This document shows positions 1,295-46,008 of a DNA stretch of 64,000 nucleotides, in pieces. The position numbers and the translations under genes are program-made. The DNA lies in assembly GCA_044223735.1 (NCBI GenBank), contig JBGALR010000038.1, positions 2,147-66,146 on the forward strand, read 5' to 3'. Origin of the DNA: Limisphaerales bacterium. Lineage in GTDB: Bacteria; Verrucomicrobiota; Verrucomicrobiia; Limisphaerales; UBA8199. Position 1 is the stretch's first letter, and each line of letters opens with the position of its first letter. The notes beneath the pieces are model-generated. The model saw only the letters and a list, made by a program, of their open reading frames with translations, did no database searches and was not told the DNA's origin.

Positions 1295-1352
1295 AAATTG
1301 CCTTTGGGTCAGTCTGATCCTGGCCCTGGCGACACTGGCCGTCTATTGGCCG

Positions 1353-3449: not shown

Positions 3450-3547
3450 CCGTCGGAAGTGTTGTCACTTGCGGGAAGGAGTTTCATCCGGCAGCTTTTA
3501 ACGACGGGACAATGGCGGGTGACGAACGGATGACGGGGAATGATATT

Positions 3548-30573: not shown

Positions 30574-31581
30574 CTACTTCAAATATTTGTCGAGTGGCGG
30601 ATGGAGCAAGTCGTTGATCTCCGGCTGCTCCATATTTTTGGGCGTCACCAGTACGACGCCCGTGTCGATCCGGTTTTCGACTTTTTCGCCTTGCAGGTGC
30701 TTCATCACGGTGATGACTGAAAGGTAACCCATGAGCATCGGATTTTGCACGACGAGCCCCTGAACGTCGCCGTTTTTCATATCAAGCACGGACTGGGTGC
30801 CGGCGTCAAAGCCGACCATATTGACTTTGCCGCCTGCCTTGCCGATATCGCGCAGAGCCTTGGTCATGGCAATGGTCGCCGGTTCGCAGACGCAGAATAC
30901 GCCGTTTACTTCGGCGCCAAACCGGTTCAGCAAATTCTGCGAGGCCTGATAGGCGGTCTCCACCGTGGGGCCGGCATATTGATCGCTGGAGATCAATTTG
31001 ATGTCAGGAAATTTGCCCAGCCCGTCGAGGAAACCCTTCTCGCGTTCCTCCGTGCTGTTCGAGCCCACCGCGTAACGCAGCAGAATCACGTTGCCCTTGC
31101 CCCCCAGCAATTCACCCATGTATTGGGCGGCGAGCTGCCCCCCTTTGAAATTATCGGTGGCCACGAAGCTCAGGTATTTGTCCGACTTCAAACCGGAGTC
31201 CATGATGACAACCGGGATGCCGGCCTGCACCGCGCTCTCCACGGGATTGACCAGCGCCTGCGAATCCAGCGGCGCCAGCACGAGGCCGCTCACATGGCGG
31301 CTCGTGAAGTTTTCCACGACCTGGATTTGCTGATCGCGATCGTCCTCCCGCAGCGGACCTTTCCAGACCACTTCCACCGGTACGCCTTTGGCGACCAGTT
31401 CCTGCTGGGCTTTGACCGCGCCCGCGTGGATCGATTTCCAAAACTCATGCGTCGTTCCCTTGGGAATGACCGCGATGGTGTAGGGTTTTTTTTCGTCCGC
31501 CTTGTTTTCGTCCGCTTTCTTTTCGCAGCCGATGAGAGCAACGACGGCTAGCGCCAGCGCCAGGTGAAGTAAAAATTTCAC
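30574..31581 (-). CDS. Sugar ABC transporter periplasmic substrate-binding protein (RbsB/LacI-type PBP fold)
   Basis: Lipoprotein-like signal (LIGCEKK), ...YTIAVIPKGTTHEFWKSIHAGAVKA..., type I periplasmic binding fold. It lies directly downstream of the inositol oxygenase gene. Confidence 0.85.
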   Translation of the reverse strand: MKFLLHLALALAVVALIGCEKKADENKADEKKPYTIAVIPKGTTHEFWKSIHAGAVKAQQELVAKGVPVEVVWKGPLREDDRDQQIQVVENFTSRHVSGLVLAPLDSQALVNPVESAVQAGIPVVIMDSGLKSDKYLSFVATDNFKGGQLAAQYMGELLGGKGNVILLRYAVGSNSTEEREKGFLDGLGKFPDIKLISSDQYAGPTVETAYQASQNLLNRFGAEVNGVFCVCEPATIAMTKALRDIGKAGGKVNMVGFDAGTQSVLDMKNGDVQGLVVQNPMLMGYLSVITVMKHLQGEKVENRIDTGVVLVTPKNMEQPEINDLLHPPLDKYLK

Positions 31582-31607: not shown

Positions 31608-32516
31608 TTACCAGTTAACCTTCGCGGGAAAATATTCCCCGATCAACGCTTCGTAATACGGCCGCAACGCTTTCACATCCGGCTTCGCGTGATTCTTCGT
31701 GTAGAGATCGTAGCGATTGAATTTCAGCACCCACTCCATCATCTCCCGATCGTGCGCGGTGGTCAGACGGTTGTATTCCCCCTCCCGATGCCACGGATAA
31801 AACGAATGATACCGCAGCATGTAGAGTCCTTCCTCGGGCAGATAATCCTTGGCGACGTGATAAATGTATTCGTCATGACCCCAGGAAATCTGCACGGCAT
31901 CCAGGCCGCAACCCTCCTCGTAAACCCCCAATTCCGTTTGGTAACGCTGATTCCTGCTGTCTGGGTTGTCCGCAAAGAACTGCGGAAAAACAATCTTCGG
32001 CGAGAAACGGCATCCCGTCGCGAACGTATCCCCCACCACCGCCCACTGCGGTTCGCCCCACAGGCACAGCATCTTGCCGAGATCGTGAATCAATCCGGTG
32101 AGAATGAACCAGCGCGGATGACCGTCCGCGCGGATCTGCTCCGAGGTCTGCAACAAATGCTCGAGCTGCGAAAGGTCCGTATCCGGGTCGCTGTCATCCA
32201 CCAGCGTATTGAGATATTCCATTGCCTCCCACACACCCATCTTGCGGCGATTCAAGCCCAGATATTCCTTCCGCTTCGCCTGCACGAAATCGTAGGTCTG
32301 GTGGAGATGATTCTGGCGGTAAAACTCCCGCACACTCGGCCGCGCATTCGCCTCGTAATTGCGAAACTGCTCCGGCTTTTTCTCCGGATCCACCGTTTGA
32401 AAACGCGGCGTGGCCGGAGGCGCGGGCTCGGGATAGCGTTCCTTGAGAAAATCCTCCCACTCATCCATGCTCTCAAGCGGAGAGTGACTGTTCGACCGGG
32501 GTTCGGACGATTTCAT
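31608..32516 (-). CDS. myo-Inositol oxygenase (MIOX, HD-domain di-iron enzyme)
   Basis: ...HPRWFILTGLIHDLGKML..., ...WGEPQWAVVGDTFATGC..., ...ISWGHDEYIYHV..., ...YMLRYHSFYPWHREGEY... are the diagnostic MIOX motifs. Confidence 0.9.
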   Translation of the reverse strand: MKSSEPRSNSHSPLESMDEWEDFLKERYPEPAPPATPRFQTVDPEKKPEQFRNYEANARPSVREFYRQNHLHQTYDFVQAKRKEYLGLNRRKMGVWEAMEYLNTLVDDSDPDTDLSQLEHLLQTSEQIRADGHPRWFILTGLIHDLGKMLCLWGEPQWAVVGDTFATGCRFSPKIVFPQFFADNPDSRNQRYQTELGVYEEGCGLDAVQISWGHDEYIYHVAKDYLPEEGLYMLRYHSFYPWHREGEYNRLTTAHDREMMEWVLKFNRYDLYTKNHAKPDVKALRPYYEALIGEYFPAKVNW

Positions 32517-33575
32517 AGCTTATGATTTAGTGCATTTGCCGAAGCAGCGCAAGACGCTTGCGGCAGCGCGGCAACGCAAGGTCGCAGCCCACCGTATACC
32601 TGAGGAGGTCATCCGCCGACGGCATATCACCAGCTCTCCTGAAAAGCCCCGCTTCATTGTTGTTCCTGCCTCATTCGTCCAAAATCCCAAATTTTCACTT
32701 AGGGATTCTCCCATTCGACATTCGAAACTCAGCATCGCACTCCATTTCGCTTCCATTTGGTTTCCTCATTTTGCATTCGAAAATCTTCATTCTGCATTCA
32801 AAAGTTGGGTTCGTTTTTCTTTTTCTTAATGTTTAAAAACGTCGCAAGTTATTGTCAGTAAGATGGTTGCGAGATTTTAAAGTTGGGTTCGTTTGGTAAA
32901 ATTTACATTTACGCAAACTTCCATCTCACCCCGAAACCACGCTGCGCAACGGTACGCAACATGGCACACCATGCCGTAACCCTCCACGACTCGGCCCCAC
33001 CAGCCCGCAATCATTCCCATCCCCGTCACGTCCCCAACATCCCTCCATATCCAGCCGCCCCCCATCAAGCCCGACAAGCCACCGAAATCCTCCCCCACAC
33101 GTTGTAATTTCGCGTCTTTGACATGATTCTTCGGCCCTCCGCGACTCCGCTGCTCCGCGGTTCAATCCCTTCCATATTCAAATGTCAAAGATCATCGCCC
33201 CGCCCGGCCCTGTCCGCAGGCCCCGGACGGGACACACACACCAGTTTAACTCGCACGCATAATATTACAAGAACTTTCTAGGAACTTCGTAAGAAAAGCG
33301 GAATCGCCGGGGACGCGGGAATCCCGCGCCAGGAGCCGGCGGCCATCCTGGATCATGGCCCTCGAGTCACTGCGCCGGACGGAGATCAAACCAGCCAGGC
33401 ACTCGTCCGCGCGCCTGCCGGGCCGTGGCTTGCGGCCGATGAGAGGCGGCGAGGACGATAGTCATTAGCCTGCGGGCCGTGCAATTCATCTCCTCCGCCC
33501 ACTTTACTGGCAGCGAAGCGGCACCGCACCGCTTCCCCAACCAGCTTGGACGCCCCCGCGGGACATGCGGCTTGA

Positions 33576-33840
33576 TGCCCCTGAGTTAATCCCCGAATCT
33601 AAAATGCACAATTTGACCTCGGCAGGATCTGAGGTGGTAGGGCGGCCTCTCCGAGGGCGCCGCGATAGAAAAGTGTTCCTCGGCGGTCTCCGCGACCGCC
33701 CAAATAGTCTTGCCCGAAGCCGCGCCGTAATGGAAACCCGACTCGGACGGGGAATGAGAATATTTGATCGGTCCTTGAGACCGCTGAAGCATAACTTTTT
33801 CTTTCGGTCCCGCATGCGGGAGAGAGGTCGCCCTACCTCC
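33576..33840 (+). repeat. Structured repeat family, copy 1 (contains a ~208 nt rod-like hairpin 33633-33840)
   Basis: 5' arm ggtggtagggcggcctctcc (33633-33652) is the inverted complement of 3' arm gagaggtcgccctacctcc (33822-33840). Internal long-range complements are ggcggtctc/gagaccgc, gaccg/cggtc and caaata/tatttg. The 5' ~130 nt (gcccctgagttaatccccgaatctaaaatgcacaatttg...) are shared with copies 2 and 3. Confidence 0.6.
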
Positions 33841-33870
33841 TAAAAGTTCGCTAGCTGTTTTGCGGTTGCT

Positions 33871-34140
33871 GCCCCTGAGTTAATCCCCGAATCTAAAATG
33901 CACAATTTGGCCTCGGCAAGACCTGCGGTGGTAGGGCGGCCTCTCCGAGGGCGCCGCGATAGAAAAGTGATTCCCCGGCGGTCTCCGCGACCGCCCACAT
34001 ATTTTCCGGAATGCTTCGTCCCGGAATTTTGGATTCTTGTGACTAAATACGTATGGAGCATCAAGAATTATCGGAGCACGGTTGCCGGAATGGCGGAAAG
34101 CTTGCGATCATTCCATTGCCGGGCAAACATTGGAGCGGAT
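33871..34140 (+). repeat. Structured repeat family, copy 2 (alternative 3' module)
   Basis: It shares the 5' ~130 nt with copy 1. Its 3' ~150 nt (...tttccggaatgcttcgtcccggaattttgg...gccgggcaaacattggagc...) are shared with copy 3 at 42058-42340, with most positions identical by eye. Confidence 0.6.
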
Positions 34141-34420
34141 TAGAAATTGGACGGTTCAAATAGATATTAGAACCGCAGGCGCCGTGCTAGACAAAGGCTC
34201 AAATGACCAAAGCCATCAGGCCAATGTTTTAAAATTATAGGACTGAGCCTTTCACTCGCTCCCTCCTCGGACGGGGTCGAAAGCCGGCAGGCGACGACCA
34301 ACTATTTTGACCTGCTGGGGCGCATTTGGAAAACAACCCTGCCAGATAATACGAGTGTGACCAACGATTATTACACCACTGGCGTGCTCAGACTGACTCG
34401 ATGCGGCTTCACGGCTGGCG

Positions 34421-36250
34421 GTGATGTCCGACGGCACCAATTCCGCGACGTATACCTACCTTGCCAATTCGCCGCTGGTGAGCCAGATTGCCTTCAAGCA
34501 GAACGCCACCACCCGAATGACGACGACGAAGGTTTACGATTTTCTGAACCGGCTGAAATCCATCAGTTCGGTGTCGGCGGTGACGACCAACAGCTTCGTT
34601 TACTCCTACAACAACGCCAATCAACGCAGCGGCGTGACCAATGTGGATAATTCGAAGTGGGTTTATCAATATGACGACCTCGGCCAGGTTATCTCCGGCA
34701 AGAAATACTGGAGCGACGGCACTCCCGTGGCGGGCCAGCAGTTTGAGTATGCCTTCGACGACATTGGCAACCGCACCTCGACCAAGGCGGGTGGCGACCA
34801 GTCGGGCGCCAACCTGCGCTCGGCCACCTATGACGCCAATGCGCTGAACCAATACGACAGCCGCACCGTCCCCGGCGCGGTGGACATCCTCGGTTCGGCG
34901 ACCAATGCCGCCACGGTGACCGTCAATAACCAGCCGACGTACCGCAAGGGCAATTATTTCCGAGACCAGCTTGCGCTCAACAACGGGTCCGCCGCAGTGT
35001 GGGCCGGCATCACCAATGTGGCGGCGCTGAACAACGGAACCAACTCGGACATCGTGGCCACGAACCTCGGTTACGTGTTCTTGCCAAAAACCCCGGAGAG
35101 CTTCTCGTACGATGCCGATGGCAATTTGACCCAGGATGGCCGCTGGCAATACACTTGGGACGGCGAGAACCGCTTGGTAAACATGACCAGTCTCACCAAC
35201 GCTCCTACTGCTTCCAAACTCAAGTTGGACTTCGCCTACGACTACATGGGCCGCCGCGTTCAGAAAACGGTCTCGACCAACAACGGCAGCGGCTATTTTC
35301 CGCTCTACACCAACCGCTTCATCTATGACGGCTGGAATCTCCTGGCCGAACTGAATCCGTCGCACACCGTCATTCGTTCATTTGTGTGGGGAACCGATTT
35401 GAGCGGCACGATGCAAGATGCAGGCGGAGTGGGCGGACTGCTGGTAGTCTCGGATTCCGCGCTCGGATCAAGTTTCGTCGCGTTCGACGGAAATGGAAAT
35501 GTGAACGGACTGACGCGCATCACCGACGGCAGTACGGTCGCACAGTACCAGTATGGTCCCTTCGGTGAAGCCATCCGCGCCACCGGCCCCATGGCCAAGG
35601 CCAATCCCTTCCGGTTCTCGACCAAATACCAGGATGACGAGACAGACCTGCTTTACTACGGGTATCGGTATTACAACGCCAGCACGGGACGGTGGGGAAG
35701 CAGGGATCCTCTAGGTGAGTTAGGATTTGAAGCGACACGTGTCTCGGATGATGAAGAGATCATTGGTAGCCCGAATTCTTACGTCTTCATCGGCAACACG
35801 CCAACGACGCAGGTTGATTTGCTTGGCTTGCGCTCCTGCAAAGAGATCTGCAAGGCAATAATTGACGGCAGCTATCCCCCCCCTATTGCCGGGTTTGTTG
35901 GGTGTGAAGATGGAAAGAAATGTCCCTGCAATGCTAAATGGGATGCGATGGGATACAATCCTGGTGATTGTCCCGAAATTGATAAATCTGTGCTAAAGCA
36001 CGAGAAAAAGCATTTTGATGATGTCAGTTGCCCCAAGGGCTGCGGCTTGAAGATTGCCCCATGGAAAGACGATATGTCTAACGAAGATAAGGAGAAGTCC
36101 GAATGTGAGCGTGCAGAAGAAGACATAAAGACTTTGCAGAAGCTTGCTAAAAAGCTCACTGGCAATTGCCAGACTGTCGCAAAAAACCTGCTTGATTTTA
36201 AGCAGAAATATGTGAAGGACCATAACTGTGACAGCTTTAAGAAGAAATGA
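34421..36250 (+). CDS. RHS/YD-repeat protein, 5'-truncated fragment with C-terminal cysteine-rich HExxH-containing toxin-like tip
   Basis: YD repeats (YTYLANSPL..., VYQYDDLGQV..., FEYAFDDIGNRTS...) and the RHS core ending ...GYRYYNASTGRWGSRDPLGE...PNSYVFIGNTPTTQVDLLGL, the PxxxxDPxGL-type junction. The ~140 aa tip after it has 10 Cys and HEKKH. Upstream RHS-like sequence (34207-34420, ...TTNYFDLLGRIWKTTLPDNTSV...) is in a different frame, so the gene is frameshifted. There is no N-terminal RHS portion, because the upstream DNA is the repeat family. Confidence 0.8.
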   Translation: MMSDGTNSATYTYLANSPLVSQIAFKQNATTRMTTTKVYDFLNRLKSISSVSAVTTNSFVYSYNNANQRSGVTNVDNSKWVYQYDDLGQVISGKKYWSDGTPVAGQQFEYAFDDIGNRTSTKAGGDQSGANLRSATYDANALNQYDSRTVPGAVDILGSATNAATVTVNNQPTYRKGNYFRDQLALNNGSAAVWAGITNVAALNNGTNSDIVATNLGYVFLPKTPESFSYDADGNLTQDGRWQYTWDGENRLVNMTSLTNAPTASKLKLDFAYDYMGRRVQKTVSTNNGSGYFPLYTNRFIYDGWNLLAELNPSHTVIRSFVWGTDLSGTMQDAGGVGGLLVVSDSALGSSFVAFDGNGNVNGLTRITDGSTVAQYQYGPFGEAIRATGPMAKANPFRFSTKYQDDETDLLYYGYRYYNASTGRWGSRDPLGELGFEATRVSDDEEIIGSPNSYVFIGNTPTTQVDLLGLRSCKEICKAIIDGSYPPPIAGFVGCEDGKKCPCNAKWDAMGYNPGDCPEIDKSVLKHEKKHFDDVSCPKGCGLKIAPWKDDMSNEDKEKSECERAEEDIKTLQKLAKKLTGNCQTVAKNLLDFKQKYVKDHNCDSFKKK

Positions 36251-36591
36251 AAACAACCTTTTGCTCCTCTGTGGCGACGGTTTGTCTTTGTTTGTTGCCG
36301 ATCTTGTTCGGTTGCCTGTTGGGATGTTCTACGACCGTGGTCCCGCAAAAACATATTGAGCCAGCGCCGGACTTTAGCAGGTCAGCGTTGGAAAGAGCAG
36401 ATCTGGCTTTGAAGACGGCTATACGTGTTTTCGACGAAAAAGTTGGACTGGATAATTGTAAATTTAGGATCGACATGCGAAGGGTCTACGGGGCATGGAG
36501 AATAACATTTGTTTATATCCCGGAGGCGCCTGACTATTCTGGTGTGGTAATTGTGCATGATAATGGTGAGACGGAATCTTTTCTAAAATAG
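36247..36591 (+). CDS. Lipoprotein, candidate cognate immunity protein of the RHS C-terminal toxin
   Basis: The start overlaps the rhs stop by 4 nt (ATGA). Signal peptide with lipobox LLGCS. 114 aa with no recognisable enzymatic motif. This is the classic toxin/immunity gene arrangement. Confidence 0.55.
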   Translation: MKTTFCSSVATVCLCLLPILFGCLLGCSTTVVPQKHIEPAPDFSRSALERADLALKTAIRVFDEKVGLDNCKFRIDMRRVYGAWRITFVYIPEAPDYSGVVIVHDNGETESFLK

Positions 36592-36673
36592 CCGTCGCCA
36601 AGACTTGCCGGCTTTCGCTTCCCCTTAAAAGAGCTACGTCGCGAAACACGGCAAGACTTGGCTCCCCCCTGTG

Positions 36674-36982
36674 AAGGGTCGGTCCTAGAATTATGACACT
36701 TTTGCGCTGGACACGGGTTTCGAGGTCTGCCTAAGCTGGGCGCGCCATGGCCAGGCCGATTCGCATTCAGTATCCGGGCCGGTTGGGCTTGAGCGAAACG
36801 GATCTGGAGGAACTGCCGCCGGGCGCAGTGGAGAAAGTGGCTTTGGCGTGTCAGTCAGGCCGTGAGCCGGATGCAGACCAAACCATCCCGCAAGCTGAAA
36901 AAACTGCGGGATCAACTGAACCGGGGAAACGAATGACCAGGTCGAGGCAGCCAAAGTGTCATGATTCTAGGACCGACCCCTT
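36674..36982 (+). mobile_element. MITE-like internal-deletion derivative (copy A) of the IS200/RAYT-like element
   Basis: Terminal inverted repeats aagggtcggtcctagaattatgacactt ... aagtgtcatgattctaggaccgacccctt. It retains only the first 11 codons of the transposase (MARPIRIQYPG) and the 3' subterminal region. Confidence 0.7.
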
Positions 36983-37043
36983 TAAAGTCGGCCTGTCAAT
37001 AGGGGATTACAAATTCTGGCTCAAACCGGAAGGAAAAAAATAT

Positions 37044-37610
37044 GTGAAGTATGATGATCGCGTAGAATTGGAAAAGCAAATATGTATTGGTGATAAATTT
37101 AGTATTCCTAATCAGGTGCTAATCGTCGTCGGAGATCAAATTGCAGCGACTGGATCAAGAAAAATGGCAAACTACGGAGTCCAGGTTATGCAAGCGCGTG
37201 GTTTTTCTGTTGCATATTATGATTACAATATTCAACAAGTGACTGGCAATACCATTACTGATTATGTTGCAAGCGGGAATTTGTGGGGGTTCTCGTTTTT
37301 TGGACATGGCGTGGTTAACTGGAATCCGTTAGATAGGGCATCTAATGGAGGCTTCAACATTAACCATGCGGATGACATCCTCTACCCAAGTTCTATGCTC
37401 CTAAGTCGGCGGCAGTTCGGCGACGGCAAAACTATGGGGAGCTCTAAATATGGATTAGTCATTGCCTTCATGTGTAGTGCATCTTCTGCTTCTTGGAGCT
37501 CTCTCTCGTCCGGTGAAGCTTGGCAAAGCCCCTGGCTCTTTCAGCCAGCACGAAACTTCCCAATGGAGCAGGAAATCAGGGACACCTTTAAGAGAGCTAG
37601 TGCAAAATGA
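37044..37610 (+). CDS. Hypothetical protein encoded in a low-GC orphan module (possible orphan toxin/effector)
   Basis: ORF continuous with the MITE copy A. The GTG at 37044 is preceded by GGAAGGAAAAAAA. The region is AT-rich relative to the window, and I recognise no family. The stop overlaps the next ORF by 4 nt. Confidence 0.4.
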   Translation: MKYDDRVELEKQICIGDKFSIPNQVLIVVGDQIAATGSRKMANYGVQVMQARGFSVAYYDYNIQQVTGNTITDYVASGNLWGFSFFGHGVVNWNPLDRASNGGFNINHADDILYPSSMLLSRRQFGDGKTMGSSKYGLVIAFMCSASSASWSSLSSGEAWQSPWLFQPARNFPMEQEIRDTFKRASAK

Positions 37611-38014
37611 ATTTTAATTTGAAGCGATTCGGTAAGGCTGGGTGTTTGGCGGCAGCTTTATTTATCATTTTCGCCATATGGCTTTTCTTTTGGATTGTTG
37701 AGCCTCCAGGACGAGCAGAAAGCGCATATTTGAGAGCATCATTCAATGCGTGTTACCGAAGTGTAGTCGCTGTTCAAAAAAGCGAGGCGACATTGCGAGC
37801 GTTTCCTGATTGTATTACGAACTTATTCCTAAATCCCCCGGGTAAAGACCATATTGAGTTCATGCCAATTGCAGATGTTGATAAGATCACGACTAATACC
37901 ATTTTATGCCGAAGTAGAAATAGAATCAAAGGGCGCTATATGTTGCTGTTGGGATCTGGGGAAATCACGTGGATCAACGAAATCAATAAGTCAAATGTTC
38001 TAGAAGCACCCTGA
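37607..38014 (+). CDS. Hypothetical membrane protein (possible immunity partner of the preceding ORF)
   Basis: ATGA overlap with the upstream ORF, an N-terminal TM helix (CLAAALFIIFAIWLFFWIV), 135 aa, low GC. Confidence 0.45.
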   Translation: MNFNLKRFGKAGCLAAALFIIFAIWLFFWIVEPPGRAESAYLRASFNACYRSVVAVQKSEATLRAFPDCITNLFLNPPGKDHIEFMPIADVDKITTNTILCRSRNRIKGRYMLLLGSGEITWINEINKSNVLEAP

Positions 38015-38279
38015 AATTCTGACTCCTCTCCGTCGGATATTGCAAGTTGCTCCGAATTTTGTATGGGAATTGATGCCGGAATTAGTGCGGTTGCACTGCA
38101 GATGGGGTTTTGAGGGAGTGCTTTAAGCTAATTGCGATTCCCAGGCCGGTCCGGAATCAATATTTGAGTGCGGCTAATCCGTAATGGCCGGGGGAGCCGC
38201 GGGTAGAGATCTTTGTGGATATTGTCGATGGCAACCGCTTCTTTCGGGATACACGTTTTGCAATCGGATAAGGCGATTG

Positions 38280-38663
38280 AAGGGGTCGGTCCTAGAATTA
38301 TGACACTTTTGCGCTGGACACGGGTTTCGAGTTCTGTCTAAGCTGGGCGCGCCATGGCCAGGCCGATTCGCATTCAGTATCCGGGCCGGTTGGGATTGAG
38401 CGAAACGGATCTGGAGGAACTGCAGCCGGGCGCAGTGGAGAAAGTGGCTTTGGCGTGGTGGTTGAGGCGACGCACCACGGCATCGTTGCGCTGGGCCACC
38501 GGGCGCTTGCGGATGGGCCACTACAGCCGGGTCAGCCAGGCCGTGAGCCGGATGCAGAACAAACCATCCCGCAAGCTGAAAAAACTGCGGGATCAACTGA
38601 GCCGGGGAAACGAATGACTAGGTCGAGGCAGCCAAAGTGTCATAATTCTAGGACCGACCCCTT
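38280..38663 (+). mobile_element. MITE-like internal-deletion derivative (copy B) of the IS200/RAYT-like element
   Basis: Same inverted repeats as copies A and C. It retains the first 11 codons plus a longer 3' segment (ggcgtggtggttgaggcgacgcaccacgg...) that is identical to the 3' part of copy C. Confidence 0.7.
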
Positions 38664-38664
38664 T

Positions 38665-39042
38665 ATGTGCCAATCGACGGCTTTTGAAAAAGTAAAAATG
38701 AATATCTACGAGGTAATTTATTGGGGGGCAAAGCTGAAGGAAAGGGATGAAGACACTATCTTTTTGGTTCGTGCACCTGATTTCAGAAGCGCAATCGAGG
38801 AGGTGGCAAGGAATGGTTCTTCTTCCGTGATCGGTTCCGATAAAGTGGCACATGTTGTTTTTGAATTGGGAAAAGATCTTTCCGAACCTGCTGATGGCTA
38901 TTCCTCAATTTTGCGAGGTCCTTATTTTCAGTGTGCTTATAATCATGGCTGGCGCGCTTGGCATAGGCAATATGAGGGATCGACCTATACGGACCAGTGG
39001 CGTGAAGAGCCAAAGAACCCGTCGGAAAAAGATTCGCCGTAG
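38665..39042 (+). CDS. Small hypothetical cytoplasmic protein (low-GC orphan; immunity-protein-like size)
   Basis: The ATG sits directly after the right inverted repeat of MITE copy B. About 125 aa, no TM helix, AT-rich. Confidence 0.35.
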   Translation: MCQSTAFEKVKMNIYEVIYWGAKLKERDEDTIFLVRAPDFRSAIEEVARNGSSSVIGSDKVAHVVFELGKDLSEPADGYSSILRGPYFQCAYNHGWRAWHRQYEGSTYTDQWREEPKNPSEKDSP

Positions 39043-39083
39043 GCCCAAGGCGATTAAAAAGCCCGCCGTCACGCCTCGCCCCT

Positions 39084-39608
39084 TCACGGTACGCGAGTGC
39101 GCAGAAGCCAGCCCACTTCCGCGGGAGGCGCATCTTCGTTGAGTTGCGTCAGAATGCCATTGGCCCGTGATTCCTCCACGCTGGTGACTCGCACGAAATC
39201 TTCCGTGTGGCCGGGCTTTCTGGCCCAGAGTTCCATGCCCGGCCGCAACCCCTCTTTAATGCCGGCATCCAAAGAGACCGGTGTATCCCTGAAGAAATCC
39301 TTGGAGCCTTCCGTGATGGGACGCTTTGAGCTGACGCCTGTGGCGGCGATGCGCGCCTCGATTGGCTTGGGCGGAAGGTAGGCGCGAAACTCTGGCGGCA
39401 CCTCGGGCAAGCCCTCGACGAGATTTGTTTCGTCACCCCGCCGCAATAAGAAATGTCCTCGTTCCTTGTGGCGCGGCTCGCGACCTTCTCGGATCTGGTT
39501 AAAGAATTGGATCATTTCGTTCGCCGGGATCAGGTAATGCCGGGCACCCCACGAAATGGGAATCAGTTCGGCTTCGAACCCCGTGAAGGGGACGGTCCTG
39601 AATGGCAC
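39084..39608 (-). CDS. Hypothetical protein
   Basis: 174 aa ORF with ordinary composition. I recognise no motifs. Confidence 0.35.
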   Translation of the reverse strand: MPFRTVPFTGFEAELIPISWGARHYLIPANEMIQFFNQIREGREPRHKERGHFLLRRGDETNLVEGLPEVPPEFRAYLPPKPIEARIAATGVSSKRPITEGSKDFFRDTPVSLDAGIKEGLRPGMELWARKPGHTEDFVRVTSVEESRANGILTQLNEDAPPAEVGWLLRTRVP

Positions 39609-39985
39609 TTAGTTAAGGGTGCGGTAATTTCGTGGTTTGGCTTTCCAATGGCGATTTCGGTGTGGGATTTCACGAAACTGGTGACGTGGTCGGTTGAGCA
39701 AGGGGTACTGTTTTGGTCGGCGTTTGAGTGCGCGGGGTTCGCGCCGTCCCGGGCGAAGAGGCACCAGGTCACGGGCAAGGTTAAGGAGGAGATCGAGCCA
39801 GAGTTCTCGTCGGCATTTTTGGTTGGGAGCTCGATCCAGCGCGGCGCTGAATTGGCGCAATCCGTCCAGGGCTCCTTTGAAACTGAGGCGGTCGAGCTGG
39901 GCGTGGAACTGCGCCACCGACTCGGCCATGAGGCAGCGGACCAAATTGTGGGCGATCAGGTAGGCCAGCAGTTCCTTTTCCGCCA
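39609..39985 (-). pseudogene. C-terminal fragment of an IS4/IS5-superfamily DDE transposase (remnant)
   Basis: ...AEKELLAYLIAHNLVRCLMAESVAQ...RPGRREPRALKRRPKQYPLLNRPR... resembles the conserved C-terminal region of IS4-family transposases. The fragment begins exactly at the left end of element copy C. The rest of the track ORF 39609-40601 is antisense to copy C. Confidence 0.4.
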
Positions 39986-39993
39986 TGGCTGTG

Positions 39994-40625
39994 AAGGGGT
40001 CGGTCCTATAATTATGACACTTTTGCGCTGGACAGAGATTTCGATGTCCGTTTAGATTAGGGCACCATGGCCAGGCCGATTCGCATTCAGTATCCGGGGG
40101 CGGTGTATCACGTGATGGCGCGGGGCAATCACGGACAGAAAATCTTTGCCGATGACGCCGATCGCAAAACATTCCTCTCGGCGCTGGCGGAGGCGTGCGC
40201 CAAGACCCGCTGGCGCATTCACGCTTACGTCCTGATGGCCAACCACTACCACCTGCTGCTCCAGACACCCGAACCCAATCTCGTGGACGGCATGAAATGG
40301 CTGCAGGGCGTTTACACGTTGCACCACAATTCGCGGCACAAGGTCCGGGGACATCTCTTTCAGGGACGTTACAAGGCCATTCCGGTGGAAACTGCGGACG
40401 GCACCGGGGATTATTTCGGCGTGGTGGTTGAGGCGACGCACCACGGTATCGTTGCGCTGGGCCACCGGGCGGTTGCGGATGGGCCACTACAGCCGGGTCA
40501 GCCAGGCCGTGAGCCGGATGCAGACCAAACCATCCCGCAAGCTGAAAAAACTGCGGGATCAACTGAACCGGGGAAACGAATGACCAGGTCGAGGCAGCCA
40601 AAGTGTCATAATTCTAGGACCCCTT
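39994..40625 (+). mobile_element. IS200/IS605-superfamily (RAYT-like) element, copy C, with ~29 bp terminal inverted repeats
   Basis: Inverted repeats aaggggtcggtcctataattatgacactt ... aagtgtcataattctaggac(cgac deleted)ccctt. It carries the longest tnpA remnant. Confidence 0.75.
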
Positions 40626-40666
40626 TACAATTAACGGCACCTCGCCTTGCGCCTTGCGATATTTGA
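40067..40666 (+). CDS. tnpA: Y1 HuH (IS200/RAYT-type) tyrosine transposase, N-terminal catalytic half only
   Basis: MARPIRIQYPGAVYHVMARGNHGQKIFADDADRKTFLSALAEACAKTRWRIHAYVLMANHYHLLLQTPE...GHLFQGRYKAI has the HuH motif HYHLLL and the GRYKA Tyr motif. After about residue 110 the ORF runs into the 3' subterminal repeat, and its stop lies outside the element. It is therefore probably non-functional. Confidence 0.7.
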   Translation: MARPIRIQYPGAVYHVMARGNHGQKIFADDADRKTFLSALAEACAKTRWRIHAYVLMANHYHLLLQTPEPNLVDGMKWLQGVYTLHHNSRHKVRGHLFQGRYKAIPVETADGTGDYFGVVVEATHHGIVALGHRAVADGPLQPGQPGREPDADQTIPQAEKTAGSTEPGKRMTRSRQPKCHNSRTPLQLTAPRLAPCDI

Positions 40667-40705
40667 AGTCCTGAAATTCCTGGTCGCGTGAATTGTCCTG
40701 ATGCC

Positions 40706-41902
40706 TTAAAAAAGATGCGTTATGCGCATTGCAAAGATGGCAAACAACAATCCGACCAGCCCCGAAAACATCGTCCCATTCCACGCCATGGTAGCCGCTG
40801 CCGCCGGCCGGGGGAAATCGGGCGTCACGCCAGCCGCCAAAATCCGGTCATAAAGATGCGGATGGGTCGTCCGGTTCTTCGCGGTGACGGCCGGCAGGAG
40901 GTTATCTGCATAGAGCCGGGTCAGGGCGCGGGCATAAGTTCCCGCATCACCCTGATGGTCTGTGGCCATCAGGTCCGCCCGTGATTCCAGCTTCCGGCTG
41001 ATGCTTCGGTAAATGCGGGGAACGCCGAGAGTGACTAGGAGCAACCCGTAAAAGGCAAAAAGGCCAAAGGCGTGCAGCAACGGATTGAAGAACATCCACG
41101 GTAGAAATGACATCATTTGGATGGAGCGTGAATATCGGGATGTCCTTGATTCGGTGAGGTGCGCCAATTCATGAGCGCAGACACTGGCAATTTCATCATC
41201 GGAGAGCAATTCGAGCAACCGTTCCGTGAATAACAGCTGGCGTGTGTGCGGAAGCGCGGCGGCTTGGGCCATGGGGGAACGCATCAATACGACTTCACGA
41301 AACGGAACTTTCATTCTGGTGGAAGTATCGCGGGCAATTTTCTCCAATCGCTCGGTGGCCGGTTGGAACCAGCCGAGCATTTTGCCAAACCAAATCAGAC
41401 CGCCACGCACCCAAATCACCCATAAAACAACCACCGTCCCGCCAATTCCCAGCGCCATTGGATTGAACTCGTCCGGCATGAATACCGCCGCGCCGAGGAA
41501 TACGAACCAGATCAGAAACCGCAACAGGATGCCAATGCCCACTGAACGCAGCAGTTCACGCATCGGAATGCGTGGGAAAAGCTCGTGATCGAAGGGCAAC
41601 GTTCCGGCGTGGGCGCCTAAAACTGAAACCATGCCAGTGAACAACCAAAGCGGTGACGAATCCGGCCATAACAGCAACACAGCCAGCGTGAGAACGCCCG
41701 GAACCGTCAGGAGATTGGACCGCGCCGCGACGCTGACCGGATACACCAACCGCGCCTGTTCAGACCAATGCGTGTCCTGGCTGCGTCGCCAGGGAATTAA
41801 CGCCAGCCAATTCGTAATAAAGGTCAAGCCCGCTGCCAGCAAGCCCGCGCCGATGATGATCATCCCATTCAAGCTTGGTGGAGTAAAACAACCGGCAGGC
41901 AA
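40706..41902 (-). CDS. M48-family (HtpX/Ste24-like) integral membrane zinc metallopeptidase
   Basis: Multiple TM helices, HExxH motif (CAHELAHL), and a downstream Glu-rich segment, as in peptidase M48/M56. Confidence 0.75.
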   Translation of the reverse strand: MPAGCFTPPSLNGMIIIGAGLLAAGLTFITNWLALIPWRRSQDTHWSEQARLVYPVSVAARSNLLTVPGVLTLAVLLLWPDSSPLWLFTGMVSVLGAHAGTLPFDHELFPRIPMRELLRSVGIGILLRFLIWFVFLGAAVFMPDEFNPMALGIGGTVVVLWVIWVRGGLIWFGKMLGWFQPATERLEKIARDTSTRMKVPFREVVLMRSPMAQAAALPHTRQLLFTERLLELLSDDEIASVCAHELAHLTESRTSRYSRSIQMMSFLPWMFFNPLLHAFGLFAFYGLLLVTLGVPRIYRSISRKLESRADLMATDHQGDAGTYARALTRLYADNLLPAVTAKNRTTHPHLYDRILAAGVTPDFPRPAAAATMAWNGTMFSGLVGLLFAIFAMRITHLF

Positions 41903-41989
41903 AAGCTAAAGCGGAAACCTTACTCTGCATAAGCCGAATCAGGACAACGCGCCATGCAGGATAGGGGGACTCATGTCATTTTTGAGCGT

Positions 41990-42340
41990 TGATAATTCGC
42001 ATGCGGGAAAGAGGCCGCCCTACCACCTCGAAGTTCCCTTACGATCTCGCGACCCGATGCCCCTAATTTAATGCCGAAATCGAGGGCTCACAATTTGACC
42101 AGGAAATGACTGCGGTGGTAGGGCGAGCTCTCCGAGCGCGCCGCGATAGAAAAGTGTTCCCCGGCGGTCTCCGCGACCGCCCAAATATTTCCGTGAAACG
42201 CTTCGTCCCGGAAATTTGGATGCTTGTGACTAAATGCCTGTGGAGCATCAGGAATAATCGGAACGCGGCCACCGGAATGGGGGCAAGCTTGCAATCATTC
42301 CATGGCCGGGCAAACATTGGAGCAGGTTAGAAACGGGACG
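41990..42340 (+). repeat. Structured repeat family, copy 3, preceded by a ~40 nt remnant of the copy-1 3' arm
   Basis: 41990-42029 (cgcatgcgggaaagaggccgccctaccacctcgaagttc) matches the 3' end of copy 1. 42058-42340 matches copy 2 over its full length. It is in direct orientation relative to copy 2 and brackets the 34.1-42.0 kb island. Confidence 0.6.
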
Positions 42341-42347
42341 GCTAAAA

Positions 42348-43562
42348 TCATTTTGCCGTTTTTTTGATGGCTCCGGCCTCCTTTAGCAATTTCAATGTCG
42401 GACCCAATGGCAATGCTTCCACCGTACCCTGAAAACCTCGCACGGTTTCAGCGCGAAACATGGAGTCATAAATCGCCTCTTCCGTAGCGTCGGCCACCGC
42501 CTTGAACAGCGGCGACATCCGGGCATTTGAGATCTCCTTGAAATTGTGAATTTCCGCATCGAATTGCCTTCGGCACCCGGCGGCGGTGGAAAAAGCGATA
42601 GCGTAGTCGCCCGACCCGTTGGACATGCTTGAACCCGTCCGCGCCAATCCAACCATCGCGCGCGATGCAAGCCGTTCGAGGTTGCGGGAACTTAGCGGAG
42701 CATCAGTCGCCACCACGATCATAATGCTGCCGTTGCCGGAATTGTTTCCTGGTTCGCGCCGCAACAATTCACGCTCCACATGAACCCCATCAATGGATAG
42801 TTCTCCGCCAAAATTACTCTGCACCAGCACGCCAACAGCATAGCCCCCGGATTCTTTCGGCAGCAGGCGCGAACTGGTGCCAATGCCGCCTTTCCAACCA
42901 AAGGCGACCGTTCCAGCGCCCGCACCGACGCAGCCCTCTTCCACCACACCGTTGGTCGCGTTTTCCAAGGCGTTAAAGACGTCCTCTGCGCGAATGGGCC
43001 GGGCGCGAATGTCATTTAGCAGGCCGTCGTTCGTTTCGCCGACCAACGGGTTGATGGAACGCACGTCCGCCATGCCCGGTTGCGCGAGCAGCCACGAGAC
43101 CATCGCGTCGGCAACTTTCCAGACACTCAACGTCCCCGTCAGCACAATAGGCGTTTCCAGTTCACCCATTTCCCTGACCTGGGTGATGCCCAGTAATTTA
43201 CCATATCCGTTGCCGACAAAAATTGCGGCGGGCACACGCTCCTTAAACACGTTTCCGCCGTGCGGAAAAATTGTCGTGACCCCAGTATGAAATCGTTCAC
43301 CGTCAATGACACTCACCTGGCCGACGCGCACGCCGGCCACGTCCGTGATCGCGTTTAACGGGCCAGTCGGCAACGTGCCAATTACAATTCCAGCTTCGCG
43401 CGCACGTGGCCGCGGTTCAGGCAGTGCTCCATTCGTAGGCAGGGAAACTCCGAGGACCGTGACGAAAGCGCAGACAAGTTGAAAGCGGAGCGCGACGCAT
43501 TTTTTCATAAAACTTGGTTGCGTCCCAACCGCGGGCGCGCGATTGACGACGGGGAGGCTCAC
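42348..43562 (-). CDS. DmpA/OAT-family (peptidase S58) L-aminopeptidase / D-Ala-esterase-amidase
   Basis: Signal peptide, ...GIVIGTLPTGPLNAITDVAGVRVGQVSVIDGERFHTGVTTIF..., ...GAGAGTVAFGWKGGIGTSSR..., the P1/DmpA self-processing family pattern. Confidence 0.75.
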   Translation of the reverse strand: MSLPVVNRAPAVGTQPSFMKKCVALRFQLVCAFVTVLGVSLPTNGALPEPRPRAREAGIVIGTLPTGPLNAITDVAGVRVGQVSVIDGERFHTGVTTIFPHGGNVFKERVPAAIFVGNGYGKLLGITQVREMGELETPIVLTGTLSVWKVADAMVSWLLAQPGMADVRSINPLVGETNDGLLNDIRARPIRAEDVFNALENATNGVVEEGCVGAGAGTVAFGWKGGIGTSSRLLPKESGGYAVGVLVQSNFGGELSIDGVHVERELLRREPGNNSGNGSIMIVVATDAPLSSRNLERLASRAMVGLARTGSSMSNGSGDYAIAFSTAAGCRRQFDAEIHNFKEISNARMSPLFKAVADATEEAIYDSMFRAETVRGFQGTVEALPLGPTLKLLKEAGAIKKTAK

Positions 43563-43571
43563 AAAGGCAGA

Positions 43572-44561
43572 TTAAACCGGGATCTTCGCTTGGCGAGAAA
43601 AAACGCGGAGATGCTTATTCCGCATTACATAATCAGCAACGTATTCGCGGAATGATGCCTGCAATTGCGCCGTGACTGTGTCCGGTCCCAGCGCGAAGCG
43701 TACGTCATCAATCGCATTGACCGGACAGATTTCCTTCGTAGTGCTGACCACAAAACACTCGCTGAAAGTCGAAAGCTCCTCTGGACGAATGGCGGCCTCC
43801 TTCATGGTCACTCCGGCACCGCGCGCCACGGGTCCCAATACTGCGGCGCGGGTAATTCCTTCGAGCAGTCCAGCCGTTAACGGCGGCGTGCAGGCAATAT
43901 GGTCGCGAACCAAAAAAATATTCGACACGGCGGACTCACAGATTTCCCCCGAAAGATTGGTCATTAGGACCTCATCCGCACCGGCGGCGATGGCTTCGCG
44001 CAGGCAAAGAATATTATTCAGGTAATTGCCCGTCTTCCACAGAGGATTGAGCGTGGATGGGTGGTTGCGGCGCAAGGTTTTTGCCACGGCGAGTTTCAGG
44101 CCCCGAGCGGACTCTTCGGAAGACATTCCTTTCAAGTGTTGAACGAGCAGAACGTAATCGGGATTATCCGCGAGCCGGGAGTTGAGTCCGATGGCGCCCG
44201 CACCGCGCGAGACTTGCAACCGAATATACAGTTCTCCGATCGCGGTCGATTTGCGGAAGAAGGCGCGAACCGTGCGGCGGATCTCATTGAACATTTCGGC
44301 CTGCGTAAAGGGGAGGCTGAATCCCAGCGCCAGGGCAGACCGTTCCAGCCGCAACCAATGCTCTTCCCAGGCAAAGAGAATCCCGTCATACGTCCGCCAC
44401 ACTTCGTAGATGGCATCACCGTAAAGAAAACCGCGATCCAGTGGCGAAATGCTAGGTTTGGTCGCGGCGCTCAGTTTGCCATTTGTGTTGGCCTGGATGT
44501 AGTTGGAATTCATCGGAATTGAGTCTCGGATGGAGCGGGTATTTTGAGGCGGGGATTTCAA
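43572..44561 (-). CDS. Class IV (D-amino-acid / branched-chain) aminotransferase-fold PLP enzyme
   Basis: ...LDRGFLYGDAIYEVWRTYDG..., ...VSNIFLVRDH...TPPL...LEGITR... fold-type IV signature. Confidence 0.8.
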   Translation of the reverse strand: MKSPPQNTRSIRDSIPMNSNYIQANTNGKLSAATKPSISPLDRGFLYGDAIYEVWRTYDGILFAWEEHWLRLERSALALGFSLPFTQAEMFNEIRRTVRAFFRKSTAIGELYIRLQVSRGAGAIGLNSRLADNPDYVLLVQHLKGMSSEESARGLKLAVAKTLRRNHPSTLNPLWKTGNYLNNILCLREAIAAGADEVLMTNLSGEICESAVSNIFLVRDHIACTPPLTAGLLEGITRAAVLGPVARGAGVTMKEAAIRPEELSTFSECFVVSTTKEICPVNAIDDVRFALGPDTVTAQLQASFREYVADYVMRNKHLRVFSRQAKIPV

Positions 44562-44840
44562 GAGCCTGGGTTATGCTGATTTCGGAAATTCGCGCTCACC
44601 CCTCACGCCTTGGATGGCTAAAATCAGAAGTCCGACCGCTAAATATATTTCGGAGTCGTGCACATCAAGAATTTGTCGCCCGGGCAATTATTAAAGAGTT
44701 CGTTTGTATCTGGACATCAAAAATCGCAAATCCGCTTGGAAATCAAAGTTTTTTAAAGCGAGATGCCATATTGACGCAGCCCCTTAAAAACCAGCGTGTC
44801 CGCCGTAATCTGTCGGCTATCCGTTAACACTACGGAGCCT

Positions 44841-45027
44841 AAGGGCCTGGAGTTATGACGCTTTTATGCCGGACAATGTCTTCGAGTTGCGTTTGAGTTG
44901 GGGCGGTTTATCACGAGCAGGCGCGTGGAACCGCGGGCAGAAATCTTTGTCCATGATGGCGATCACAAAAGGTTCGCCAGGCATTACCGCCTCGCGCGGC
45001 TGAAGTCGCAAACGGCTGTCACCCCTT
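44841..45027 (+). mobile_element. Degraded relic of a fourth, more divergent IS200/RAYT-like element copy
   Basis: aagggcctgg-agttatgacgcttttatgccggacaatgtcttcgagttgcg... aligns with the left end of copy C. ...gtttatcacgagcaggcgcgtggaaccgcgggcagaaatctttg... aligns with the AVYHVMARGNHGQKIF coding region but contains a stop. The right end is ...aagtcgcaaacggctgtcacccctt. Confidence 0.4.
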
Positions 45028-46008
45028 CATCCGGCTCTGGCGCAGCAGATCCAGACCGACGGCGATGATGATGACGATGCCGATGATGATTTCCTGGGTG
45101 AAATTTTGCCAGCCCATCTGGTTTGAGCCGTTGCGGAGAACGGCCATGATCAACGCTCCGATCATCGAGCCCAAAATGCTCCCGGTGCCGCCGCTCAGGC
45201 TGGCTCCGCCGATGACCACGGCGGCGATGATGTCGAGTTCGAGGCCGACGGCGACGGTGGGGTCGCCGATGGTGAGTCGCGAGACTTGCATGAGACCCGC
45301 CAGGCCGAACAGCAGGCCTGCCAGGGAATAGATCACAACCTTTTGCAGCGGGACGCGGATGCCGCACAGGCGCGCGGTGGCTTCGTTCGAGCCGATGGCG
45401 AAAATGTAACGTCCGAAAACGGTTTGTCGCATCACGACGAATACGAGGATGGCGAGCACGATGGCGATCCAGACGCCGGGCGGCAGCGGGAACAACCGGT
45501 CCGGCTTCGCGATGGCCATCAGTTGCGTGATTTTCGCTCCGGGCGGCAGCAGGACGGTCTGGTTGCCCGCGAGCCATTTCGCGGAGCCGCGCAGTATCCC
45601 CATCATTCCCAAGGTCACGATGAATGGCGGCATGCGAAAGCCGGCGATGACGAGTCCGTTGAGCAGGCCGGTGATGCCGCCCGTCAGCACCGTTGCCATG
45701 ACGGCGGTGGCGGTGGAGCAACCTTTGACGAGCAACGTTGCGGCGACAATGCCGGTCAACGCGACGGCCGAGCCCACGCTCAAATCAATGCCGCCACTGA
45801 CGATGATCATCGTCATGCCGAGCGCGCCGATGGCCACGATGACGGTTTGCGTCAGGATGATCTTGAAATTTCCTCCCGTGAACAGGTAGGGACGCACCTC
45901 CGAACTCAGCGAAAAAAGTCCAAGCACGAGCAACAGACCGATGAAAGGTCCGGCCACGTTCAAGACGCGAATGGGGTTAAGACGTTTTGGGGTAGCGGAA
46001 GCGTTCAT
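45019..46008 (-). CDS. Sugar ABC transporter permease (RbsC/branched-chain permease family)
   Basis: About 10 TM helices and the typical permease motifs of the ribose/xylose family. It lies directly downstream of the ATPase gene. Confidence 0.85.
   Translation of the reverse strand: MNASATPKRLNPIRVLNVAGPFIGLLLVLGLFSLSSEVRPYLFTGGNFKIILTQTVIVAIGALGMTMIIVSGGIDLSVGSAVALTGIVAATLLVKGCSTATAVMATVLTGGITGLLNGLVIAGFRMPPFIVTLGMMGILRGSAKWLAGNQTVLLPPGAKITQLMAIAKPDRLFPLPPGVWIAIVLAILVFVVMRQTVFGRYIFAIGSNEATARLCGIRVPLQKVVIYSLAGLLFGLAGLMQVSRLTIGDPTVAVGLELDIIAAVVIGGASLSGGTGSILGSMIGALIMAVLRNGSNQMGWQNFTQEIIIGIVIIIAVGLDLLRQSRMKG

Follow-up and report, generated by a model that had tools for sequence, protein, structure and literature searches.

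The stretch of DNA considered here (the window) comprises 64,000 nucleotides of a Limisphaerales bacterium of the phylum Verrucomicrobiota (GenBank assembly GCA_044223735.1, contig JBGALR010000038.1, positions 2,147 to 66,146), and all coordinates count from its first base unless another contig is named. It contains four genes of a locus for inositol uptake and catabolism, which encode a double ATP-binding cassette (ABC) ATPase, an ABC permease, myo-inositol oxygenase (MIOX) and a periplasmic sugar-binding protein (SBP). These genes share one strand, with 12.5 kb of other DNA separating the permease from MIOX (Table 1). This gap holds a truncated rhs gene and its candidate immunity gene, open reading frames (ORFs) of low GC content, three ordinary protein-coding genes, a long non-coding direct repeat, a remnant of an IS4-family insertion sequence (IS) and seven copies or fragments of a TIRtron, that is, a transposase gene bounded by terminal inverted repeats (TIRs). 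The gap is proposed to be a lineage-specific mosaic that was put together stepwise in the spacer between permease and MIOX, and that was organised by the TIRtron copies and the IS4 element.

A homology search with MIOX identified its closest relatives, at 83–85% identity, in metagenome-assembled genomes of Verrucomicrobiia/Limisphaerales. The proteins of the window were mapped onto 81 loci, namely those of 80 related genomes and of L001, a contig of the same strain. Among the genomes in which upstream sequence with the transporter is retained, L005 and L004 (MIOX 83–84% identical) are the closest, and both show the order ATPase-permease-MIOX-SBP, with the permease and MIOX ~330 bp apart in L005 and ~85 bp apart in L004. 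The permease also lies directly 5' of MIOX in 12 further genomes (L012, L018, L021, L023, L032, L035, L039, L040, L053, L062, L065, and L074). Across the 14 loci, the spacing is ~50–630 bp, as against 12,502 bp in the window (32517-45018). None of the DNA of this interval occurs in the 80 related genome loci, and the S58 peptidase, aminotransferase and M48 protease genes that it carries are never near MIOX in any of them. Since the permease adjoins MIOX in relatives and is far removed from it here, the ancestral operon ATPase-permease-MIOX-SBP was split. A first-pass annotation of the window had suggested a once-contiguous sugar/inositol locus, and the gene order of the 14 relatives supports this idea. 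The same annotation took 33560-42345 as the inserted stretch, which proves too short: the S58 and aminotransferase genes, as well as 1 kb of non-coding DNA, lie within the gap and outside the direct repeats that had served as its limits. The ORFs of this 1 kb, next to MIOX, have no Pfam match, and it has no counterpart among the related loci.

Of the components of the gap, the TIRtrons are the most numerous. Three young copies (E1, E2, and E3) and four older copies or fragments lie within 11 kb, all in one orientation, and every TIR match of the 64-kb window falls within 34.2-45.0 kb, with none in shuffled sequence. The TIRs of the family are ~35 bp long and start with T(G/A)AAGGGGTCGG; those of E1–E3 measure 33–36 nt, are 92–97% complementary, and enclose nested internal deletions of one gene. 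E3, the longest derivative, encodes the N-terminal 120 codons of the TIR-associated tyrosine transposase (TIRYT), in which the HUH motif reads HYH (MANHYHLLLQ). An internal deletion has removed its catalytic-tyrosine region, and its right TIR has a 4-nt deletion. The catalytic-tyrosine region (YIHLNP-type) is likewise deleted in E1 and E2, so that all TIRtrons of the window, none of which has this region, are non-autonomous. Among the older pieces, the solo TIR shows 9 mismatches in 35 positions, a match not found in 20 shuffles. The fragment at the right edge of the gap, which has 65% identity in the repeat search, lies 17 bp from the permease stop codon. Alignment of E1–E3 revealed no target duplications around the copies, and the TIRs are not self-palindromic (self-folding z about 0).

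A homology search yielded 1356 relatives. A full-length relative, on locus L087 of a related genome (344-1483), is 1.14 kb long and consists of a left TIR, a gene of ~345 codons and a right TIR, the two TIRs being 28 nt long and 93% complementary. Its gene is frameshifted, and encodes a Y1_Tnp domain, the YIHLNP tyrosine motif (STYIHLNPARAG) and a C-terminal tail that may resemble a helix-turn-helix (HTH); the C-terminal 71 codons of E2 are 68% identical to the C-terminus of this TIRYT. A few hundred bp 3' of this element, L087 also carries TIR dimers with an 8-nt spacer and a solo TIR (2043-2090, 2153-2173), which look like the doublets known as REPINs.

Table 1. Features of the interrupted operon and of the gap within it, in window coordinates (L002–L005, MIOX loci of related genomes; L087, locus with the full-length relative of the TIRtrons).
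Feature	Position	Strand	Evidence and remarks
SBP, last gene of ancestral operon	30574-31581	(-)	Pfam Peripla_BP_4 2e-58; also 3' of MIOX in L002-L005
MIOX	31608-32516	(-)	Pfam MIOX 2.6e-111
Spacer 5' of MIOX, non-coding; left edge of lineage-specific stretch	32517-33571		C-rich tract, GC skew down to -0.33
Repeat copy A, core only, tandem to B, period 294	33572-33716	(+)	95% identical to B core; nhmmer E = 1e-43
Repeat copy B, ~350-bp non-coding unit	33811-34161	(+)	Alignment to C
Solo diverged right-hand TIR of old TIRtron	34220-34255	(+)	78% complementary to E3 left TIR
rhs fragment, 5'-truncated, frameshifted	34256-36250	(+)	YD repeats from 34256; ORF 34421-36250; RHS_repeat 2.5e-10
Candidate immunity gene, 114-aa predicted lipoprotein	36247-36591	(+)	Start overlaps rhs stop by 4 bp; signal peptide, LLGC lipobox
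E1, 315-bp internal-deletion derivative, both TIRs	36671-36985	(+)	Keeps first 11 codons and 3' end of TIRYT gene
Low-GC ORFan, 5'-open frame	36986-37610	(+)	GC 0.43-0.47, tetranucleotide z up to 9.6 (pair 36986-38014)
Membrane ORF	37607-38014	(+)	4-bp overlap with ORFan 36986-37610
Old decayed TIRtron 5' fragment, directly before E2	38050-38261	(+)	nhmmer: E3 positions 77-191, E = 9e-4; L087 element, E = 1e-3
E2, 388-bp internal-deletion derivative, both TIRs	38278-38665	(+)	5' deletion junction shared with E1
orfB, 114 aa	38698-39042	(+)	ORF list; no family match
orfC	39084-39582	(-)	ORF 39084-39608; first codons are IS4 inverted repeat and TIR sequence; no family match
17-nt stub of TIRtron left TIR (GTGAAGGGGACGGTCCT), cut by IS4 end	39583-39599	(+)	Sequence; AGGACCGNCCC match
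IS4-family remnant, truncated by E3	39600-39988	(-)	Terminal sequence GAATGGCACTTAGTTAAG (39600-39617) and C-terminal 126 transposase codons
E3, longest derivative, ~640 bp	39989-40631	(+)	Y1_Tnp 1.1e-11; 78% identity to L087 TIRYT
M48 zinc metalloprotease, intact	40706-41902	(-)	Peptidase_M48 3e-15; composition z < 1.5
Repeat copy C	41998-42348	(+)	Right end abuts S58 stop codon; left end 96 bp 5' of M48 start
S58 (DmpA-type) peptidase, inside operon gap	42348-43562	(-)	Peptidase_S58 2.9e-115
Class IV aminotransferase, inside operon gap	43572-44561	(-)	Aminotran_4 2e-49
Old decayed TIRtron 5' fragment, left TIR and first ~130 nt of gene	44831-45001	(+)	nhmmer: E3 E = 4.5e-8; L087 E = 3e-4
ABC permease, early gene of ancestral operon	45019-46008	(-)	BPD_transp_2 1.4e-44
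Double ABC ATPase, early gene of ancestral operon	46015-47553	(-)	ABC_tran 2.4e-51

Judged by sequence, E1–E3 and the fragments belong to the TIRtron family, in which a TIRYT gene of the Y1 (HUH) type is bounded by TIRs and resembles the transposases associated with repetitive extragenic palindromic (REP) sequences, or RAYTs. In two accounts, TIRtrons, which were named by Di Nocera et al. (2013; PMC3733652), have TIRs with a GGGGWSAS motif (PMC3733652; PMC6006769), TIRYTs fall within subclass 2.1 of TnpA-REP (Quentin et al., 2018; PMC6006769), and the HTH domain expected at the C-terminus of TIRYT is of the Bac_DnaA_C, HTH_23 or HTH_28 type (PMC3733652; PMC6006769). The elements described here share with those TIRtrons the RAYT-like Y1 HUH gene flanked by long TIRs instead of REP hairpins. 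They also share the GGGGWSAS motif near the TIR tip, which matches at 7 of 8 positions in the window (GGGGTCGG) and at 8 of 8 in L087 (GGGGTCAG), and, near the L087 relative, solo and dimeric TIRs; a C-terminal extension is present that may be HTH-like. The extension gave a weak HTH_1 match only (E = 0.16), on the C-terminal ORF of L087, and none on that of E2. The best NCBIfam model for the E3 ORF is REP_Tyr_transpos, at 40.6 bits against a cut-off of 80, a score that is low because the E3 protein is truncated. The window copies differ from the described TIRtrons in that all are internal-deletion derivatives or fragments, clustered at junctions of unrelated blocks of DNA, and in that one type of deletion recurs in other contigs; such spread, like that of miniature inverted-repeat transposable elements (MITEs), is absent from the consulted sections of both accounts, and Verrucomicrobiota are not among the examples given there.

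Two neighbouring classes fit less well. RAYTs are typically single-copy, vertically inherited genes with palindromic REPs on either side, which occur in large numbers across the genome (Bertels et al., 2017; PMC5581495). The elements of the window resemble the REPIN-RAYT system (Bertels and Rainey, 2011; Bertels et al., 2017) in their related Y1 clade, short flanking inverted sequences, non-autonomous doublets and extragenic positions. On the other hand, their gene is multi-copy and decaying, with seven copies or fragments in 11 kb and none elsewhere in the 64 kb, and their TIRs are not palindromic; membership in REPIN-RAYT was therefore rejected. Assignment to IS200/IS605 was rejected as well, given the long TIRs and a score of 18.8 for NCBIfam transpos_IS200 against a cut-off of 55. 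The lack of target duplications is in keeping with a trait of IS200/IS605.

Every boundary between unrelated blocks of the gap carries a TIRtron copy or fragment, and the exact end of a TIR is also where four reading frames stop: the rhs fragment (34256), a low-GC orphan ORF, or ORFan (36986), orfC (39582), and the IS4 transposase (39988). The first base of the rhs frame follows directly on the solo TIR, and the ORFan is open from the right end of E1. At the other two sites, orfC runs into the TIR stub and the IS4 end, and the IS4 transposase is cut by the left end of E3. Frames that end at TIRs, with an element at each junction, thus speak for events at element ends and not for one integration. 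RAYT-like elements, which the first-pass annotation had counted among the cargo, are in this locus the structuring repeats. Its inventory of genes is otherwise confirmed by Pfam and tblastn: SBP and MIOX, permease and ATPase, rhs, three related elements with Y1_Tnp in the longest, the M48 protease and the IS4 remnant are all present.

The blocks between the elements are of two kinds. Tetranucleotide distance (z up to 9.6) and GC content (0.43–0.49) are atypical only at about 35.5-39.5 kb, and the DNA at 39.5-45 kb is indistinguishable in composition from the rest of the window. The view that the region as a whole differs from its flanks in composition thus holds for the former part and fails for the latter, and the strand bias noted earlier only reflects a switch of coding strand. 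The block of native composition contains the M48, S58 and aminotransferase genes. Orthologues of the M48 protease form a graded series, with identities that fall from 76% to 50%, and their genomic contexts vary; the neighbours of the gene are different in all three relatives compared (L084–L086), and none of them corresponds to any gene of the window. The M48 gene, repeat copy C, and the S58 and aminotransferase genes would accordingly represent relocated host DNA.

The rhs fragment extends into the atypical part. It aligns to residues 1319–1951 of a 1951-aa RHS protein with 48% identity, starts at a TIR end, and is frameshifted near 34385-34420, the upstream YD peptide lying in another frame. 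It thus falls short of a complete Rhs protein, which would have a delivery region at the N-terminus and a full shell, and a full-length rhs gene is absent from the window. The Rhs core, at about 35552-35830 (residues 378–470; Rhs_assc_core, TIGR03696, 8e-17), contains the sequence GSRDPLGELG, and a PDB profile search with the fragment matched the ends of Rhs/Tc cores. Beyond the core, residues 471–609 of the ORF (35831-36247) form a toxin domain with a conserved HExxH motif, a downstream Glu and about 10 Cys residues. In all of 94 representative homologues, the match is C-terminal, and the carriers include RHS and eCIS_core (DUF4157) proteins. AlphaFold2 (AF2) models the domain with a pLDDT of 96, and Foldseek returned nothing at E <= 0.001 (TM <= 0.36), hence no analogue in the PDB. 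The product of the gene that follows has no family match; its position alone makes it plausible as the protein that confers immunity to a metallopeptidase acting in the periplasm.

Orphan rhs toxin-immunity modules are described for Salmonella, E. coli, and Serratia. The present fragment resembles these modules as a 5'-truncated piece with YD repeats, an Rhs core (DPxGL), a variable C-terminal toxin and a small gene that overlaps it by 4 bp. It is unlike them in that no full-length rhs gene lies upstream in the window, the truncation coincides with a TIRtron end and not with a recombination tract, and the frame is shifted. Because the N-terminal ~1300 residues are missing and the gene is frameshifted, the toxin is not deliverable as it stands; the fragment may serve as a silent donor of toxin tips, and its immunity gene may still be protective.

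For the ORFan and the membrane ORF that follow E1 (36986-38014), Pfam, NCBIfam and PADLOC gave no match. The sole homologue of the ORFan (37002-37610) among 5.8 billion proteins is itself, and its AF2 single-sequence model (pLDDT 29) is unusable; a caspase-like H-G...C dyad in it is conceivable, as a guess. The rhs/immunity pair (36247-36250) and the ORFan/membrane-ORF pair (37607-37610) both have a 4-bp ATGA stop-start overlap, and the second of these overlaps hints at a real co-translated pair despite the lack of homologues. Further along, orfC is probably truncated at its 5' end, as its first codons suggest. A defence-system reading was rejected after none of nine ORFs matched PADLOC. With low-GC orphan modules that have no homologues, the label of toxin cassettes is unsupported, and the hot spot for polymorphic toxins that had been envisaged comes down to one truncated rhs fragment among ORFans.

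The IS4 remnant (39609-39989) has no match in Pfam or NCBIfam, and was tentatively assigned by tblastn, in which annotated IS4 transposases matched it at 40–43% identity with a best E of 2e-11. A single end of this element is present in the window, and the matching inverted end was seen in L088, an 878-bp contig from activated sludge. At 820-878 of L088, two IS4 ends point towards each other (CTTAACTAAGTGCCATTC AGGACCGACCC GAATGGCACTTAGTTAAG), and the 11-mer between them is the tip region of a TIRtron TIR. This arrangement looks like an end-to-end junction, or like two IS4 copies at the same TIR target. The IS4 end of the window cuts the TIR at the same position as in L088 (39599/39600).

Taken together, and with a probability of roughly 0.62, the interval 32517-45018 is read as a lineage-specific, stepwise mosaic in the permease-MIOX spacer, in which TIRtron copies and an IS4 element are the organising parts. 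According to this model, an early TIRtron would have inserted immediately 3' of the permease gene. Subsequent events at element ends, either an insertion and then a deletion of adjacent DNA, or recombination of copies in the same orientation, could then have juxtaposed a block of native composition (the M48 gene, the 350-bp repeat unit, and the S58 and aminotransferase genes) with low-GC foreign DNA, which would comprise the ORFans and the 3' third of an rhs gene together with its immunity gene. E1–E3, as young non-autonomous derivatives, would have arrived last.

Several observations weigh against this model. In L003 (MIOX 84%), positions 1-4536 hold argB, a copper-translocating P-type ATPase and a small ORF 5' of MIOX, and not the ABC transporter genes. 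With unrelated genes at this place, the permease-MIOX junction is unstable in the clade and was rearranged independently in another lineage, and the junction may therefore have been rearranged by means unrelated to TIRtrons. TIRtrons may also, like REPs, prefer intergenic DNA, in which case they would have inserted between blocks that already existed. The order of events is only inferred, because no conspecific empty or intermediate site was found and the closest comparators are 83–85% identical in MIOX. Finally, since this is a metagenome-derived contig with a repeat at every junction, some of the joins could be assembly errors, and L088 joins E1 differently from the window.

The long direct repeat, which the first-pass annotation had noted at ~330 bp and treated as the border of an island, is real and bears on two other explanations. 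Copies B and C are ~85% identical over ~350 bp at an offset of 8187 (gap-free blocks 76–90% in the repeat search and three-way alignment), and A is a partial tandem copy. A core of ~85 nt is nearly invariant in A, B and C, with flanks 63–85% identical, and a 23-mer from this core occurs at only these three positions in the 64 kb (0 expected). Copy B contains an imperfect internal inverted repeat of ~25–30 bp (about 33811-33840 versus 33926-33960, enclosing ~90 nt) and a 7-bp GC hairpin at 33977-33995 with a T-rich tail after it. A protein-coding role was ruled out: the B/C substitutions have no codon periodicity, with no third-position bias, and stops occur in all six frames. The unit was also dropped as a part of the TIRtron, having no similarity to the full-length element or to TIRYT proteins. 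By eye, it was dropped as a diversity-generating retroelement, CRISPR or attC site, as its mismatches are not adenine-specific and neither a reverse transcriptase, an integron integrase nor attC boxes are present. A profile of B and C found no further copy by nhmmer elsewhere in the window, in the 80 MIOX loci or in the three M48 loci.

One reading, which is unlikely yet compatible with the mosaic, holds that the unit is a functional non-coding element, such as a structured RNA or a leader/terminator, native to the intergenic space between S58 and M48, and that A and B are duplicates carried along by rearrangement and unrelated to how the mosaic formed. Copy C indeed fills this space from the S58 stop codon onwards. 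On the minus strand, which is that of S58 and M48, RNAalifold predicts an outer stem of ~25 bp with inner helices and three compensatory pairs, and the hairpin and T-rich tail would suit such a role. The near-invariant core suggests either some constraint or gene conversion. However, the covariation is statistically weightless because there are only two full copies; the folding energy is unexceptional (z = -0.9 to -2.2 against mononucleotide shuffles); and no Rfam family matched at gathering thresholds or at E <= 5, a hit to mir-241 (E = 0.054) being noise. Moreover, copies A and B have no downstream gene, nothing similar lies 5' of the M48 orthologues in L084–L086, and exact-word scans of metagenome (19-mers) and viral contigs (20-mers) gave one chance match each, the former inside a Clp-N-like ORF.

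A single composite island, with the repeats as att-like borders and polymorphic-toxin cassettes as its cargo, is improbable. The locus is interrupted relative to its relatives, and there are true repeats in direct orientation around 8 kb of DNA that holds an rhs toxin tip with a candidate immunity gene, and also low-GC pairs of ORFs that overlap by 4 bp. In these respects, it resembles integrase-borne islands, which are bracketed by direct att repeats and consist of variable DNA that is absent from relatives and partly atypical in composition. Unlike such borders, these repeats are 350 bp long, ~15% diverged and, at one of the two sites, partly tandem-duplicated. They are also set back from the ends of the real gap, by 1.3 kb and 2.7 kb, which leaves S58 and the aminotransferase outside them. 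No integrase family was found among the ORFs scanned (32.5-45 kb and scanned flanks), and no tRNA is present at the locus. The divergence, the partial tandem copy, and the lack of integrase and tRNA thus make the units unlike attL/attR or target-site duplications. The composition is native in half of the DNA between the repeats (39.5-42.3 kb), and there is but a single rhs fragment. An island of this kind had been expected to leave an empty site with one copy of the repeat in relatives, yet the uninterrupted sites of L004 and L005 hold none. The 350-bp units are non-coding repeats that happen to bracket 8 kb of the mosaic, and are not its borders.

Misassembly is a further explanation, according to which TIRtron copies with 97–98% identity were misjoined and the apparent island is partly a chimera of several loci. 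There is a repeat at each block junction, and short-read contigs from a sample with the same strain break near or in repeats, at 32819, 40592, and 42160. L088 matches the window at 100% identity for 253 bp, a stretch that takes in the end of the immunity gene and the left end of E1, and then continues into an E3-type derivative and a different right flank with the other IS4 end. Only two segments are confirmed by independent contigs: MIOX-SBP with 303 bp of upstream DNA by L001, and the segment from the right end of E3 through M48 to the left part of unit C by L082. Nevertheless, E1, E2 and E3 differ in their deletions, lengths (315, 388, and 640 bp) and left ends (87–90%), and with such differences and short lengths the copies are distinguishable and bridgeable by read pairs. 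L082 supports the arrangement around M48, and MIOX and the permease adjoin non-operon DNA for at least 1.7 kb and at least 4 kb, respectively, so that the operon is split either way. An artefactual block order is thus given little probability, and L088 could itself be a chimeric short-read contig. The E3-type deletion junction occurs in L088, at the E1 site, and in protein P0243, from a different NCBI contig of 104 kb. Either this non-autonomous derivative has spread or the copies recombine, and the recurrence of one deletion type in other contigs suggests MITE-like spread. The least probable proposal is that a TIRYT provided in trans captures segments of foreign and native DNA by way of TIR ends in the same orientation and places them side by side, and that the 350-bp unit could be a further, undescribed mobile or structured-RNA element; if true, the locus would be a TIRtron-assembled array in which every module is bounded by TIRs, functionally analogous to gene capture by ISCR/IS91-type elements or integrons.

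Some features of the surroundings can be added. In the spacer 5' of MIOX, AAAGTTGGGTTCGTTT occurs as two exact 16-nt direct copies (32801-32816 and 32879-32894), 78 bp apart and 285–378 bp 5' of the MIOX start, with 0.06 expected by chance; the pair may act as operator or promoter for MIOX-SBP, which is now a unit of its own. The end of L001, at 32819, lies shortly behind the first of the two copies. Housekeeping genes make up the flanks of the window, namely mreB, mreC, PBP2, rodA, RNase G, aconitase-family and isopropylmalate-type dehydrogenase genes. A c-di-AMP (ydaO-type) riboswitch at 58712-58882 (+), with 55.9 bits against a gathering score of 38, lies ~100 nt 5' of an ORF with an SPFH/Band 7 domain (58978-60804).

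The kinds of components found at this locus are all known, and nothing here overturns current understanding. The novelties are modest, and consist of clustered MITE-like TIRtron derivatives at junctions, a conserved non-coding unit and an HExxH toxin domain. The last, as modelled with confidence at the rhs tip, represents an uncharacterised Cys-rich toxin domain family that is common to Rhs and eCIS-type carriers. With respect to method, conspicuous long direct repeats need not be the borders of an island; comparators, not repeats, defined the insertion. For the organism, an uncultured Verrucomicrobium, the locus documents that mobile DNA has split a catabolic operon of ABC and MIOX genes. For the family, it offers a rare view of TIRtrons acting like decaying, MITE-producing insertion sequences, which bears on whether TIRYTs are active transposases.

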